A DNA stretch of 64,000 bases from Flavobacteriales bacterium (GCA_015075325.1 JABTUP010000011.1:27072-91071), one strand, 5' to 3'; positions 3,532 to 53,035 are shown, numbered from the stretch's first letter. Notes: generated from the letters alone by a model not told the origin. Made by a program: numbers and translations.

Positions 3532-3541
3532 CCTTTTTTGC

Positions 3542-3601
3542 TCTCGCAGATTTCGCTAATTATCGCTGAAGTTTCTGCGTAAATCTGTGTAATCTGCGAG
3601 A
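3542..3601. repeat. Short inverted-repeat element related to the GxxExxY-flanking repeats
   Basis: tctcgcagatt (3542-3552) pairs with aatctgcgaga (3591-3601). It contains aatctgtgtaatc, identical to 50922-50934. Confidence 0.75.
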
Positions 3602-14919: not shown

Positions 14920-14975
14920 GTTTTGTAGAAGCAAAGGTATAAAAAAGAGGTTATAGTTTGTATCAAATAGTTTAG

Positions 14976-15064
14976 ACACTAATTTCACTAATTAAAACAT
15001 AAAAATTAATGTAATTCGTGTCAAAAAGAATTCGTTGATGAATAAAATTTGTGCAATTCGTGTC
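14976..15064. repeat. Inverted-repeat element related to the GxxExxY-flanking repeats
   Basis: gacactaatttcactaatt (14976-14994) against the reverse complement of 15046-15064, gacacgaattgcacaaatt. Compare gccacaaattgcactaatt at 50799. aattcgtgtcaaaaa occurs twice. Confidence 0.7.
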
Positions 15065-15072
15065 AAAAAAAT

Positions 15073-42992: not shown

Positions 42993-43451
42993 ATGAAGCT
43001 CTATTGCTTAAATATAATTTTATTTGTCACTTTAATTTGTCAAAAAGCTGACGCACAGAAACAGTTAGATAGTGTTCTTGTATCGAGGGTTGTTTTTCAA
43101 GGGGGCGATATTATATCCAGTCAAATTTTATTAAAAAAGGATTTTTTATTAATTTCTGAGTATTTTGGATTTAATACAATAGATAGTGTTACAAAATTTA
43201 TTAAATCGTCACAGGCTTATAGAACACCTATTTACTTTAAGTCTATTTTATACGTCATCATTGTAAATCAGGAGTATGAAACAATAATATCAAATACGCC
43301 ATTATTAGATATTGATAAGTATTTTGAATGGGCTGATATGGCTAGTTTTAGAAATAGTTTAGATAAAACTTTTGGTTTGGAATGGTGGTTTGAGGAAACC
43401 AAAGATTCTAATACTATAATAGTAGCACCAAAAAAAATGAATTACAGATAA
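42993..43451 (+). CDS. Hypothetical exported protein
   Basis: 152-aa ORF with a possible signal peptide; no family recognised. Confidence 0.5.
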   Translation: MKLYCLNIILFVTLICQKADAQKQLDSVLVSRVVFQGGDIISSQILLKKDFLLISEYFGFNTIDSVTKFIKSSQAYRTPIYFKSILYVIIVNQEYETIISNTPLLDIDKYFEWADMASFRNSLDKTFGLEWWFEETKDSNTIIVAPKKMNYR

Positions 43452-43473
43452 ATAATTTTTGACACCCCCCCGC

Positions 43474-43495
43474 TACCGCGAGCGTCCCGCTCGTG
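43474..43495. repeat. REP-like hairpin (cgagcg-tcc-cgctcg)
   Basis: GC-rich palindrome in an AT-rich intergenic region. Confidence 0.7.
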
Positions 43496-43514
43496 GGTTA
43501 ATAAAACTCAAATT

Positions 43515-43539
43515 AGATTCCTGTCTGCACAGGAATGAC
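43515..43539. repeat. ATTCCT-N8-AGGAAT palindrome (dRS3/RPE-like architecture)
   Basis: agattcctgtctgcacaggaatgac, with perfect 8-bp stem attcctgt/acaggaat. Confidence 0.75.
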
Positions 43540-43977
43540 GTAGAAAATTCAAAAAAAATAGAACAATAATTTTAGAGTTCAAATAAATCAAACTTGAAGT
43601 CGCAAAATACGGCATCAAGTTATGACTTCTCTTACAGCAAGCTGTAATAGAAAATCTTAATGGAACAGCAATTTTTAAAATACTTACAGAATGGTATCGC
43701 AAAATGCGATACCACTATCCGCTATAAGCATAGACAAGTAATTTCTATTTCAAGCGTCCGCTTGGAACGTTGTAGTTTAATATTTATTAGAAGAGTTTGA
43801 TAACTTGAGGAGTCAAATTGGCACCACAAACTGAAGAAGAACTCAATATTTATGATTTTATCATATTTTTGGAGTTGTCATAAATATGGTCTCACAAAAT
43901 GTGATACCTTCAAAACCAAAAAATAAATTAATAAAACTTCCATCATATTATCAATCAAACAAGCTCAGCAACTTGCT

Positions 43978-45084: not shown

Positions 45085-45866
45085 AAGAGAAACTTTACCA
45101 AATTATATTTGAACACGACACCAAAAAAGGAAAGCAATTTGATGTTGCGTTGCTTTGGTTGATTTTGTTTAGTGTGGTAATAGTAATTATTGAAAGTATT
45201 CCATACTTTCACAATAATTTTTTTACTGGTTTTTATGTAATTGAATGGTTTTTAACCATTGTTTTCTCTGTCGAATACATTTTACGAATTTACTGCTCTC
45301 CAAAACCATTAAAGTACATTTTTAGCTTTTGGGGTTTAATCGATTTGTTGTCTATTTTCCCAACTTATTTTGAATTGTTTGCTACTGGCTACCATTATTT
45401 ATTATCGGTTCGTATATTTAGGTTGTTGCGTGTATTTAGGGTGCTACGTTTGGTTCAGTTTAACAAAGAAGCACAAATGCTTGTGAAAGCATTAAAAGAT
45501 AGCATGTACAAAATCGGAGTGTTTTTATTAGCTGTTGTTGCTATTGTGGTAATGTTGGGTACTTTAATGTATGTAATTGAAGAAGACGAAAGTGGTTTTA
45601 CCAGTATTCCACAAGGAATTTATTGGGCAATTGTAACCATAACTACTGTTGGTTTTGGTGATATTGTACCGCAAACCATTTTAGGTAAAATACTGGCATC
45701 CTTTGCCATGATTTTAGGTTACGCCATTATTGCAATCCCTACAGGTATTGTTACCGTTGAAATGGCAAGAAATAGAGAAAATACTAAAAAATGTACAAAT
45801 TGCGAAAAAGAAAACCCCGAAACTGCCAATTTTTGTAGCAATTGCGGGGTTGAATTATTAAAATAA
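45081..45866 (+). CDS. Ion transporter / voltage-gated K+ channel with C-terminal zinc ribbon
   Basis: S4 RIFRLLRVFRVLRL, selectivity filter TTVGFGD, CTNC...CSNC. ATG 45081 overlaps the upstream stop (ATGA). Confidence 0.92.
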   Translation: MKEKLYQIIFEHDTKKGKQFDVALLWLILFSVVIVIIESIPYFHNNFFTGFYVIEWFLTIVFSVEYILRIYCSPKPLKYIFSFWGLIDLLSIFPTYFELFATGYHYLLSVRIFRLLRVFRVLRLVQFNKEAQMLVKALKDSMYKIGVFLLAVVAIVVMLGTLMYVIEEDESGFTSIPQGIYWAIVTITTVGFGDIVPQTILGKILASFAMILGYAIIAIPTGIVTVEMARNRENTKKCTNCEKENPETANFCSNCGVELLK

Positions 45867-50783: not shown

Positions 50784-50794
50784 AATTTTCTATC

Positions 50795-50940
50795 TTTTGC
50801 CACAAATTGCACTAATTAACACAGATTTGCTGCACAAATTTTTATGTTAATATTTCAACAATTACTTTTTTTATTTTTTCTCTTCATTTTAATCAATTAA
50901 TCTGCAAATTAAATTTGCGATAATCTGTGTAATCAGTGGC
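50795..50940. mobile_element. Empty (gene-less) derivative of the GxxExxY inverted-repeat element
   Basis: 50795-50850 is a near-exact direct repeat of 50963-51017, including the GxxExxY stop region ttatgttaa. Right end aatctgtgtaatcagtggc at 50922-50940. Confidence 0.7.
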
Positions 50941-50962
50941 ATAATAAAATTTATTTTTTCTT

Positions 50963-51489
50963 TTTTGCCACAAATTGCACTAATTAGCACAGATTGTTGC
51001 ACAAATTTTTATGTTAAAATTACCCTTCTAAAAGTCAAAGAATCCTCACCAAAATTAATTATCAACCCAAGTTTTGATTTCGAACATGCTAAATAATTAA
51101 TGGTTTGTTTAATATCTTCTTCATATATTCCTTCCTGATTGAGCTTTAACTTCTAGAATTAAATCATCATATACAACAAAATCAGCGATATATTTTCTTT
51201 TCAAAAGTCTTCCTTTATAATTTATAGTATAGTGTTTTTCTCTTTCATAATAAATTGAGTTATCTGAAAATTCAATTTCTAACGCATCTTTATAAACAAC
51301 TTCTAAAAATCCTTTTCCAATAATCCTATGCACCTCCATCGCTAAACCTATAATTTTATAGGTTTCGTCTTTCATTAAAAAGTCTTCTTTTTTAGAATAA
51401 AATGCTTCTGGTTCCTCGATAATATACACTATTTTAATCTTTTAATCTGTGAATAGAATCTGCGAAAATTTGTGTAATCAGTGGCAAAA
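50963..51489 (-). mobile_element. Inverted-repeat-bounded element carrying a GxxExxY gene
   Basis: Left arm 50963-50995 and right arm 51457-51489 form a 33-bp imperfect inverted repeat (26/33 by my alignment; terminal ttttgccac perfect). Confidence 0.7.
51009..51429 (-). pseudogene. GxxExxY protein (PD-(D/E)xK-like nuclease), frameshifted
   Basis: GFLEVVY motif and ADFVV...LEVKA. A ttcc duplication at 51128-51135 shifts the frame. Removing it restores GIYEEDIKQTINYLACSKSKLGLIINFGEDSLTFRRVILT*. Confidence 0.9.
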
Positions 51490-51570
51490 TATCGTAGATT
51501 GTGTAATTATAAACTCTTTTATTATTCCTACTTTTGAACCTCTCAAAGTTACTATAAAATTTATCGCGAT

Positions 51571-52977
51571 ATGGAAATAAAAAAAATTAGCAAAATTGAC
51601 TCTAAAAGTCATGTTGCATTTGTTGTAAATACTGAAAAAGAGCTTGATAATACCTTTTTTACTAAAGACGAACTGAGTTATATTAAAACTCAAATAAAAG
51701 ACGAAAATAAACTAATCGTTATCAATCGCTTATCAAAGTTTGTGTTTGTTGTATTTACGGATAAAGGCAACGACTACAAAGCCTATCAAGTAGCTAGAAA
51801 AGCTGCAAGTAAATTGGTTGAAAAAGCCAACGAATTAAAAATTAAAGACTTAATTATTAGTTCAACTACCTCAACAATTGTTGCATTTATCGAAGCTTTG
51901 CTGCTAACCAATTATCAATTTTTAAAATATTATACCGAGAAAAAAGAAAATAGCTTAAAAAATGTTGGTTTAGTTGCTAAAATAACTGCCTCAGAACTTT
52001 CTGAAATTGTTACAGTTGCCACTGCAACCAATATTGCAAAAGACTTGGTAAACGAACCTGTTTCTTACCTAAACGCAACACAATTGGCTAATGAAGCCAA
52101 AAAACTTGGTAAAGAAGCTGGTTTTAAAGTAGAAGTTCTGAGTAAATCAAAAATTGAAGCATTAAAAATGGGTGGTTTGTTGGCTGTAAACAAAGGAAGC
52201 TTAGACCAGCCCACTTTTTCAATATTAGAATGGAAGCCAACGAAAGCTAAAAATAAAAAACCCATTATTTTGGTTGGAAAAGGAGTTGTTTATGACACTG
52301 GCGGATTGAGCTTAAAACCAACACCAAATTCAATGGATATGATGAAGTGTGACATGGCAGGAGCTGCAGCAATTATGGGAGTTTTATATGCTATTGCAAA
52401 AAACAAGTTGCCTTATCATGTAATTGGGTTAATTCCTGCAACCGACAATCGTCCTGGTGGAAATGCTTATGCTCCAGGTGATGTGGTAACCATGCACAAC
52501 AAAAAAACTGTTGAGGTTTTAAATACTGATGCAGAAGGTAGAATGATTTTGGCCGATGCTTTAAGCTATGCTCAAAAATACAAACCCGAATTGGTTTTAG
52601 ATGCCGCAACCCTTACGGGTGCTGCTGCTGCTGCAATAGGGCATTATGGTGTAGTTGCTATGGGAAATGTTGATGAAAAAATAATGAACAAGCTTAAAGA
52701 AAGTGGAAAAAATGTTTACGAACGAATTGTTGAGTTTCCATTTTGGGACGAATATAACGAGCAATTAAAATCAAGTATTGCCGATATGACCAACCTCGGG
52801 AATGGTATGGGAGGAGCAATTACAGCTGGTAAATTTTTAGAAAAATTTACCGACTATCCATACATCCACTTAGATATTGCTGGACCAGCTTTTATAAAAA
52901 CACAAGTAGATTATATTTCTAAAGGAGGAACTGGTGTTGGAGTAAGATTGTTCTACGATTTTATTAAAAATTATTAA
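51571..52977 (+). CDS. pepA: Leucyl aminopeptidase (M17)
   Basis: GKGVVYDTGG, MKCDMAG, NTDAEGR, ATLTGA, HLDIAG; TAnnTTTG at 51529-51536. Confidence 0.95.
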   Translation: MEIKKISKIDSKSHVAFVVNTEKELDNTFFTKDELSYIKTQIKDENKLIVINRLSKFVFVVFTDKGNDYKAYQVARKAASKLVEKANELKIKDLIISSTTSTIVAFIEALLLTNYQFLKYYTEKKENSLKNVGLVAKITASELSEIVTVATATNIAKDLVNEPVSYLNATQLANEAKKLGKEAGFKVEVLSKSKIEALKMGGLLAVNKGSLDQPTFSILEWKPTKAKNKKPIILVGKGVVYDTGGLSLKPTPNSMDMMKCDMAGAAAIMGVLYAIAKNKLPYHVIGLIPATDNRPGGNAYAPGDVVTMHNKKTVEVLNTDAEGRMILADALSYAQKYKPELVLDAATLTGAAAAAIGHYGVVAMGNVDEKIMNKLKESGKNVYERIVEFPFWDEYNEQLKSSIADMTNLGNGMGGAITAGKFLEKFTDYPYIHLDIAGPAFIKTQVDYISKGGTGVGVRLFYDFIKNY

Positions 52978-52978
52978 A

Positions 52979-53034
52979 TAAGACCGAAGTTGGAAGACCG
53001 AAGTCAGAAAACTAGAAACAAGCAACTAGAAAAA
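52979..53034 (+). repeat. Composite 7-bp tandem array between pepA and pdxA
   Basis: taagacc gaagttg gaagacc gaagtca gaaaact agaaaca agcaact agaaaaa. Confidence 0.8.
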
Positions 53035-53035
53035 C

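Follow-up and report, generated by a model that had tools for sequence, protein, structure and literature searches.

Small bacterial genes that lie between inverted copies of their own repeats are known from several systems. In REP/REPIN-RAYT systems (REP, repetitive extragenic palindrome), a small gene stands between inverted copies of a repeat, and the same repeat recurs in intergenic DNA as inverted doublets with no gene (PMC3116915, PMC3337134, PMC3733652). Ssn GIY-YIG nucleases are encoded between cognate inverted repeats and cleave single-stranded DNA (ssDNA) near the repeat (PMC11893778). The 23S intervening sequence (IVS) of Coxiella has an S23p open reading frame (ORF) between inverted repeats, together with GACAGAT heptamers in tandem, and RNase III cuts it out of the precursor; IVS mobility has only been hypothesised (PMC4990558). 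The locus described here, which resembles each of these systems in part, lies in a 64,000-nt stretch of a Flavobacteriales genome (GCA_015075325.1, JABTUP010000011.1:27072-91071; the whole stretch is called the window). Between mqnC and pepA, a broken gene of the GxxExxY nuclease family is enclosed by inverted arms of tandem 10-bp units, and a gene-less copy with the same arms adjoins it. The locus has none of the enzymatic features that define REPIN/RAYT, Ssn/NTS or S23p IVS elements. Plausibly, if short of probably, it is a small gene cassette with array ends, now in decay, that has the history and mechanism proposed below. Cassettes of this kind are widespread, apparently undescribed, and apparently behave like slow-moving selfish DNA. 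GxxExxY/PDDEXK_3 proteins form a very common family across many phyla. A literature search found no paper that describes GxxExxY cassettes, with GxxExxY mentioned in passing only, in three papers, and a 2012 survey of PD-(D/E)XK proteins lists PF13366 simply as 'unknown'.

Comparison with relatives identifies the insertion. The search for mqnC orthologues covered 41 genomes, namely this one (G000, 33% G+C; C numbers denote its contigs) and 40 relatives, and found orthologues with 63-97% identity in 34; the closest relative, G001, has an mqnC that is 97% identical. In G000, mqnC and pepA are 787 bp apart. In the 13 relatives where the two genes are still neighbours, nine of them from the same genus, the spacer is without exception 53-159 bp long and free of a GxxExxY gene. 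The ~700-bp block between mqnC and pepA is an insertion found in this lineage only, and the empty mqnC-pepA junctions that the preliminary description of this DNA proposed to look for exist in 13 of 13 cases. The right part of the relatives' spacer, conserved among the same-genus relatives, survives to the right of the element in G000. Two boxes within it, TACTTTTG and TAACTTTG, fit the Bacteroidota -7 promoter consensus TAnnTTTG and are putative promoters. Owing to the insertion, the mqnC-directed box is now ~760 bp from mqnC, and just 11 nt separate the mqnC start codon from the gene-less copy's left arm. Because the conserved spacer with its mqnC-facing box persists to the right of the element, the cassette is placed in the mqnC leader, on the mqnC strand, and transcription of mqnC would now pass through the element. 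A candidate vestige of the element in the G009 spacer was set aside; the similarity is suggestive yet ambiguous.

Arms and gene occur together as the preliminary description had claimed. A repeat search returned arms of 33 nt each (50963-50995 and 51457-51489) that are complementary at 26 of 33 positions (79%). Between them, a 102-aa ORF (51121-51429, minus strand) matches PDDEXK_3 (PF13366) at 77.9 bits, the sole Pfam family matched, and TIGR04256 GxxExxY at 85.4 bits, above the respective profile cut-offs of 22 and 35 bits. Its GTG start is homologous to the Met of intact 137-aa relatives, and GFLEVVY (with the catalytic E), ADF (D) and LEVK (ExK) are all retained before the break. After ...LEVKAQSG the frame stops at TGA (51121-51123) and the conserved tail EEDIKQTINYLACSKSKLGLIINFGEDSLTFRRVILT, which ends in the stop codon, goes on in another frame; the frameshift falls between ExK and QxxxY and leaves the QxxxY/NFG tail out of frame. 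Two intact 137-aa homologues, L171 and L172 (70% identity), read ...KAQSGIYDEDIKQTINYL... across the break region, and the simplest reading of the break would be a 4-nt tandem duplication of AGGA. The focal gene lacks the uninterrupted full-length ORF (about 125-137 aa) that characterizes the GxxExxY family.

The family itself has a complete nuclease core. Among 71 relatives, G37, G39, E42, Y45, D82, E92, K94 and N109 are invariant and Y110 is nearly so, which gives the motif set E / D / ExK / QxxxY. An AlphaFold model of an intact homologue (predicted local distance difference test score 90.7) has its best PDB matches in Cas4 SSO0001 (E 3e-4), LHK and lambda exonucleases, RecE and the Argonaute-associated Cas4-like ACE1; the predicted fold is that of a minimal Cas4/lambda-exonuclease-like PD-(D/E)xK nuclease. 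A search of the PDB by sequence found no solved relative. The GxxExxY protein shares this fold and the motifs E, D, ExK and QxxxY with the Cas4/RecB/lambda-exonuclease domain; it is, however, ~60 residues shorter and lacks the four-cysteine 4Fe-4S cluster of Cas4 (L171 has a single Cys). Unlike Cas4, it has no cas or recombination-gene context here, its neighbours being mqnC and pepA.

Each arm consists of three to four tandem CACAGATTA-like units of 10 bp. Read from outside to inside, an arm comprises TTTT + GCCACnGATTA + CACAAATTTA + C(A/G)CAGATT..., and the element ends read TTTTGCCAC / GTGGCAAAA, without a REP-type GTAG or CGTC tetranucleotide. Arms upstream and downstream of the gene are consistently unlike: one has CGCAGATT as its third unit and the other CACAGATT, and the upstream one is longer by a CACAAATTAA unit. 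This polarity is retained in dispersed copies and in the intact relative L171, a 70%-identical cassette whose arms match the right-arm layout of the focal element. Repeat searching also bears out the reported gene-less copy immediately to the left, with both arms and the sequence ttatgttaa. Its left part (50785-50854) is 91-93% identical to 50953-51021, ttatgttaa included, with a direct repeat at 93% within it (50827-50854 versus 50994-51021), and its right part (50886-50946) is 84% identical to 51431-51491 over a 61-nt direct repeat. The two left arms at the locus are 94.6% identical over 56 nt, against 88-91% for dispersed copies, and because they have private substitutions in common, the gene-less copy is best read as a local duplicate minus its gene, not as a separate arrival. 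Coordinates are collected in Table 1.

Table 1. Positions in the window of the cassette, its gene-less copy, flanking host features and two dispersed repeats.
Feature	Position	Strand	Remarks
mqnC-like radical-SAM gene, 375 aa	49656..50783	minus	Next gene downstream of the insertion; strand shared with the cassette gene
Left arm, gene-less copy	50795..50827		TTTT + GCCACAAATT GCACTAATTA ACACAGATT, three ~10-bp units
Remnant of the gene's final codons and stop, ttatgttaa	50842..50850	minus	Kept in the gene-less copy
Right arm, gene-less copy	50886..50946		Ends in GTGGCA at 50936-50941
Left arm, gene-bearing cassette	50963..50995		Inverted repeat, 33 nt, 79%; downstream of the gene in gene orientation
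GxxExxY / PDDEXK_3 nuclease pseudogene	51009..51429	minus	GTG start at 51429, TAA stop at 51009-51011
Tandem 4-nt duplication, AGGA AGGA (simplest reading)	51129..51136	minus	Shifts the frame; comparison with intact homologues
Right arm of cassette, upstream of the gene	51431..51489		Reverse complement GCCACTGATTA CACAAATTTT CGCAGATTCTATT CACAGATTAA, four units
Conserved host spacer	51529..51551		TACTTTTG plus, toward pepA; TAACTTTG minus, toward mqnC
pepA-like leucyl aminopeptidase gene	51571..52977	plus	From the ORF list; host gene on the insertion's other side
Gene-less hairpin, C31-paralogue arm family (CTCGCAGATTTCGC...GCGTAAATCTGTGTAATCTGCGAG)	3536..3600		Present in G009 and G003; absent from G001
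Gene-less repeats, C7-paralogue arm family (GACACTAATTTCAC...)	14964..15070		Present in G003; absent from G001

Arms of this type are a general property of GxxExxY genes. The suggested check of other family members found tandem-unit arms on all seven GxxExxY genes of G000 and on ~44 inspected from two genera; for the two genera this amounts to essentially all 50 genes. When the best upstream/downstream inverted-repeat score was compared between 49 GxxExxY genes and 600 control ORFs, the relatives among the former not being independent, the medians were 19 and 12 (Mann-Whitney p 2e-21), and 67% of the GxxExxY genes exceeded the control 95th percentile. A tree of 51 proteins assigns every clade its own arm unit: AGGATT, GAACrCAGAT, GCCACGAATGCAC, GCCACAGATTCACAGATT, 10-bp GCCAC, GACACGAATT, CCACATAG, CrCAAAG and CGCAGAT. 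The focal gene's sisters occur in another genus (G053, G058 and the Vicingaceae metagenome-assembled genome L171), where they have 10-bp GCCAC arms and different flanks. In G053 and G058 the cognate gene appears intact; within G000, the C7 and C15 paralogues are intact. Across the 87 genomes of the taxonomic family, 43 have no GxxExxY gene, copy number ranges from 0 to 7 per genome and the genes are often pseudogenes; no transposase or recombinase stands beside the loci inspected.

Every arm type of G000 also has extra copies far beyond control expectation. A scan of the 87 genomes with a 24-nt consensus of the GCCAC arm (up to three mismatches, with the reversed pattern as control) gave 26 matches in G000 and none for the control. 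The distribution is patchy, with 26, 10, 37, 15, 10 and 8 matches in six genomes, 0-2 elsewhere and none in controls. At least seven of the G000 loci are complete ~125-bp gene-less hairpins with one architecture (three-unit arm, GC mini-hairpin, a TTATGTTAA-like remnant in some copies, four-unit arm) and 55-83% mutual identity. Presence of the cognate clade and hairpin abundance are positively but imperfectly associated (Fisher p 7e-4; relatives not independent). The two further gene-less hairpins that the preliminary description had related to the focal element, at 3542 and 14976, are real gene-less repeats; they belong, however, to other arm families, since CTCGCAGATTTCGC and GACACTAATTTCAC, the units of which they are built, recur in the arms of the GxxExxY paralogues on C31 and C7, respectively. 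Orphan sites proved polymorphic when compared between species: 10 of 10 testable sites are empty in G001 (seven GCCAC hairpins, one half-copy, and the window hairpins at ~3536 and ~14964). The G001 counterpart of window ~3536-3600, a CGCAGAT-type hairpin in G000, lies on G001:C17 and holds a different sequence, gtcatgctgagcttgtcgaagcatc, which looks like yet another Bacteroidota repeat family.

Turnover is visible at several sites. The C14 site has a GCCAC hairpin in G000, a CCACATAG hairpin in G009 and G003, and none in G001. At G000:C12:83142-83480 a complete GAACACAGAT-armed cassette lies inside outer arm remnants CCGCCAAGACGC ... CCTTTGCGG, and at the same site in G001 (C23:9226-9567) outer CrCAAAG-type arms flank a GxxExxY gene of another clade; the C12 arrangement probably represents a nested or replaced cassette. 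At the hisH-hisF site, the cassette is intact in G011 and G003 and interrupted by a stop codon in G009, and G000 keeps a 63-bp remnant (C56:1118-1182) that retains the ends GCCACAG...CTGTGGG. From the C14 hairpin swap, the C12 nesting and the hisH-hisF decay series it follows that, over the time that separates species of one genus, cassettes are gained and nested, decay where they stand and are lost.

Other repeats and spacers add detail. The pepA-pdxA spacer (window 52978-53035) has short unit arrays (GACCGAAGT x2, AACTAGAAA x2) and no gene; these may be remains of another cassette's arms. Arms of dispersed hairpins (e.g., G000:C61:22515-22545) each hold an outward-facing TAAATTTG ~15 nt from the element end, which fits TAnnTTTG and could drive flanking genes; the focal copy has weaker versions. 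In G053, three near-identical 159-nt GCCAC hairpins (C19:1736-1894, C79:15338-15496, C219:6840-6998) have identical flanks. They were rejected as independent insertions, as the flanks are common to all three and part of a larger repeat; because these flanks are themselves inverted repeats (AACTACTCAA.../...TTGAGTAGTT), the G053 hairpin is nested in a second, multi-copy palindromic element.

In the history proposed for the focal locus, the unit would be one 137-codon GxxExxY nuclease gene between inverted arms of three to four 10-bp units ending in TTTTGCCAC. It would have entered the mqnC leader in this lineage, in mqnC orientation, and have been duplicated in place; an internal deletion would have removed the gene from one copy, and the other copy would then have been inactivated by the 4-nt duplication. 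The arm family of this unit also occurs as the ~125-bp gene-less hairpins that are gained and lost between sister species. As for mechanism, each clade's nuclease would recognise the unit array of its own arms and nick or cut there, which would promote rare excision or copying of the DNA between the inverted arms; gene-bearing cassettes would be autonomous and hairpins non-autonomous. New copies would come to rest between cistrons, often within or next to elements already there, and read-through of the host operon would transcribe them. The preliminary description had proposed a RAYT-like nuclease with autonomous and non-autonomous units. A PD-(D/E)xK gene in cognate arms, with gene-less derivatives, is indeed present, but there is no HUH/Y1 domain, and this copy is a pseudogene. 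The RAYT-like interpretation is partly supported: insertion, derivatives, polymorphism and clade-specific arms speak for the natural history as read from sequence, and the mechanism stands as a proposal.

The comparison with REP/REPIN-RAYT systems is close in organization. Besides the flanked gene and the dispersed gene-less doublets, each gene paralogue has its own repeat family, inheritance is mostly vertical and turnover is slow. However, RAYT is an HUH/Y1 transposase (IS200/IS605-like), whereas the GxxExxY protein lacks HUH/Y1 and is Cas4/lambda-exonuclease-like. A REP is a single GTAG/CGTC-tagged palindrome and the arms here are arrays of 7-10 bp tandem units; REP copies number in the hundreds and GxxExxY arms in the tens, and here the gene-bearing unit itself is gained, nested and lost. 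Insertion sequences (IS) and miniature inverted-repeat transposable elements share terminal inverted repeats, internally deleted gene-less derivatives with both ends, presence/absence polymorphism at orthologous sites and nested insertions. They differ in that no recognised transposase family is found here by Pfam and TIGR profiles, no consistent target-site duplication was found, the unit is very small (about 530 bp) and its ends consist of tandem sub-repeats.

Several observations weigh against the cassette history and mechanism proposed here. A search of 185,579 species genomes gave the focal gene a nearest match of only 70% identity, which shows no sign of a recent transfer or jump. No near-identical cassette, sought elsewhere as a sign of recent movement, was found; a DNA-level search of the 40 relatives gave a best match of 66%. 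Many cassettes stand at the same locus across species, and inheritance must therefore be mostly vertical. Target duplication is convincing at one of eight sites (8-bp ATCAAATA at C30), the remaining 7-9 filled/empty pairs having boundaries that are ambiguous in AT-rich spacers. Three of the six hairpin-rich genomes (G002, G051 and G052) have 8-15 arms without a cognate-clade gene, and G056 has the cognate-clade gene and zero pattern matches. G002 and G053 also contain younger hairpins whose arms pair perfectly or co-vary. Moreover, 12 four-helix-bundle genes (PF05635, the 23S rRNA IVS protein family) in G000 are array-armed without any nuclease, and the copy numbers of PF05635 and PF13366 co-vary over the 87 genomes (rho 0.60). 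Because these 12 non-nuclease genes share the layout, the array-armed architecture needs no GxxExxY nuclease; it is older and wider than that nuclease.

The PF05635 genes (examples are G000:C14:22691-23005, C24:22208-22528, C21:15438-15743, C9:31969-32286 and C45:81023-81322, with seven more) are surrounded by short tandem units that differ from the GxxExxY units. On C15, a four-helix-bundle cassette (43312-43623) and a GxxExxY cassette (45310-45648) occupy consecutive gaps ~1.7 kb apart in a gene run that, from its flanking frames, is presumably an Fe-S assembly (suf-like) operon. A wider extension of the cassette reading can be formulated, which we regard as doubtful: GxxExxY and four-helix-bundle (S23p/Avd-like, '23S IVS') cassettes would be two cargo types of one undescribed class of tiny mobile elements with array ends, located in intercistronic gaps and in rRNA and carried on transcripts of the host. 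The small protein encoded by each element would bind nucleic acid and recognise the clade-specific tandem units of that element's arms, and cleavage by the Cas4-like nuclease would move gene-bearing and gene-less copies alike.

A host role for the nuclease is an unlikely alternative, albeit one with a described precedent. The protein would then be an Ssn-like housekeeping enzyme or modulator, a site-specific, probably single-strand DNA nuclease that cuts dispersed repeats and thereby modulates recombination, repair or DNA uptake; the repeats at its own gene would be a by-product or serve autoregulation, and repeats would spread by other means. The Ssn family has the same gene-between-cognate-repeats layout and cleaves ssDNA near the repeat, its nuclease-repeat pairs are lineage-specific, and its authors note an IS-like architecture (PMC11893778). 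A single-domain nuclease of ~100-140 aa whose gene is bracketed by its own 20-50 nt inverted repeats is likewise found here. Cas4 and lambda exonuclease, which resemble the predicted fold, work on single-stranded DNA or DNA ends; that each protein clade goes with its own arm unit is consistent with specific recognition, and inheritance is mostly vertical. A host function is nevertheless hard to reconcile with the 43 of 87 genomes that are gene-free and with the frequent pseudogenes; arms number 8-37 per genome compared with hundreds for NTS, and it is the whole cassette, gene plus arms, that is gained, nested and lost. The nuclease superfamilies are also unrelated (Pfam detects no GIY-YIG domain here), the repeats here are multi-unit arrays, and ssDNA cleavage is demonstrated for Ssn but putative for the GxxExxY nuclease.

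Another alternative, which is rather improbable, turns on the level at which the arms act, DNA or RNA: the insertion would be an IVS-like RNA element whose arms form a stem, cut by RNase III in the read-through transcript, that makes the insertion harmless; the nuclease would have an unrelated role, and host recombination would move the element. The likeness to the 23S IVS is considerable, as both have a small decaying ORF between inverted repeats with adjoining tandem heptamers, and the IVS is seen as selfish; in Coxiella, the GACAGAT heptamers and RNase III excision go with this layout (PMC4990558). The 12 array-armed PF05635 copies in G000 point the same way. Of 93 cassette genes, 72 (77%) point the same way as both neighbours, compared with 233 of 396 control triplets (59%; Fisher p 8e-4), and only one is antiparallel to both; this bias fits dependence on host read-through and counts for an RNA element as well. 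The perfectly paired arms of young hairpins count in its favour too, and also fit a requirement for hairpin structure during propagation. However, a 23S IVS sits in an rRNA helix and the focal element in an mRNA leader or intercistronic gap between mqnC and pepA; the IVS ORF is S23p/PF05635 and the focal ORF a PF13366 nuclease. The cassettes gave no G-U RNA signature: in 62 clear-armed cassettes, sense G-U mismatches number 74 versus 68 antisense (p 0.67; a test without positive control), so that the sense strand has no excess of G-U over A-C mismatches, and the majority of arm mismatches (337) pair in neither strand. Left arms in G000 are closer to the left arms of other copies (26.9/31) than to their own right arms (23.7/31). 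Compensatory pairing in the G000 hairpins was considered and rejected, complementarity being 23.7/31 within copies and 23.9/31 between them. The arms of gene-bearing cassettes pair at just 81% and stand >400 nt apart, and a stem leaves the tandem repetition of units and their clade specificity unexplained. An Rfam scan matched no family, and a scan for sigma-70 promoters and terminators found none beyond shuffled expectation. The missing G-U excess, the likeness of left arm to left arm and the tandem repetition of a single unit therefore favour sequence recognition by a protein over an RNA stem.

An alternative of comparably low probability keeps the hairpins mobile and makes the genes passengers. 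Some other enzyme, or replication errors at palindromes, would move the hairpins, and GxxExxY and four-helix-bundle genes would be cargo, for instance for defence or addiction. Non-nuclease cargo in the same architecture, hairpins that are abundant in genomes without a cognate gene, and copy numbers of the two cargo families that rise and fall together would all be explained. Strict tracking of cargo clade by arm unit over 51 genes tells against passengers, though co-inheritance alone could yield that pattern; no transposase or recombinase was found at the loci inspected, and the cargo families seen are two only. That nothing here is mobile, and that local duplication and chance low-complexity similarity in AT-rich spacers account for the locus, is hardly credible, even in a 33% G+C genome with two copies that look like a local duplication, given 26 arm-pattern matches versus 0 in the control, a site that is empty in 13 relatives and the same arms around a 70%-identical gene in another genus.

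The anatomy of the cassette suggests a concrete question for the GxxExxY family as a whole, namely, whether each nuclease binds or cuts its own arm array. If so, these proteins would join RAYT and Ssn as a third class of enzyme, of unrelated structure, that lives with its own dispersed repeats, and a large part of the short repeat arrays and hairpins found between genes in Bacteroidota would be explained. The link to the 23S IVS could bear on the origin of IVS elements (PMC4990558). The family might then also offer small sequence-specific nucleases with many natural specificities.

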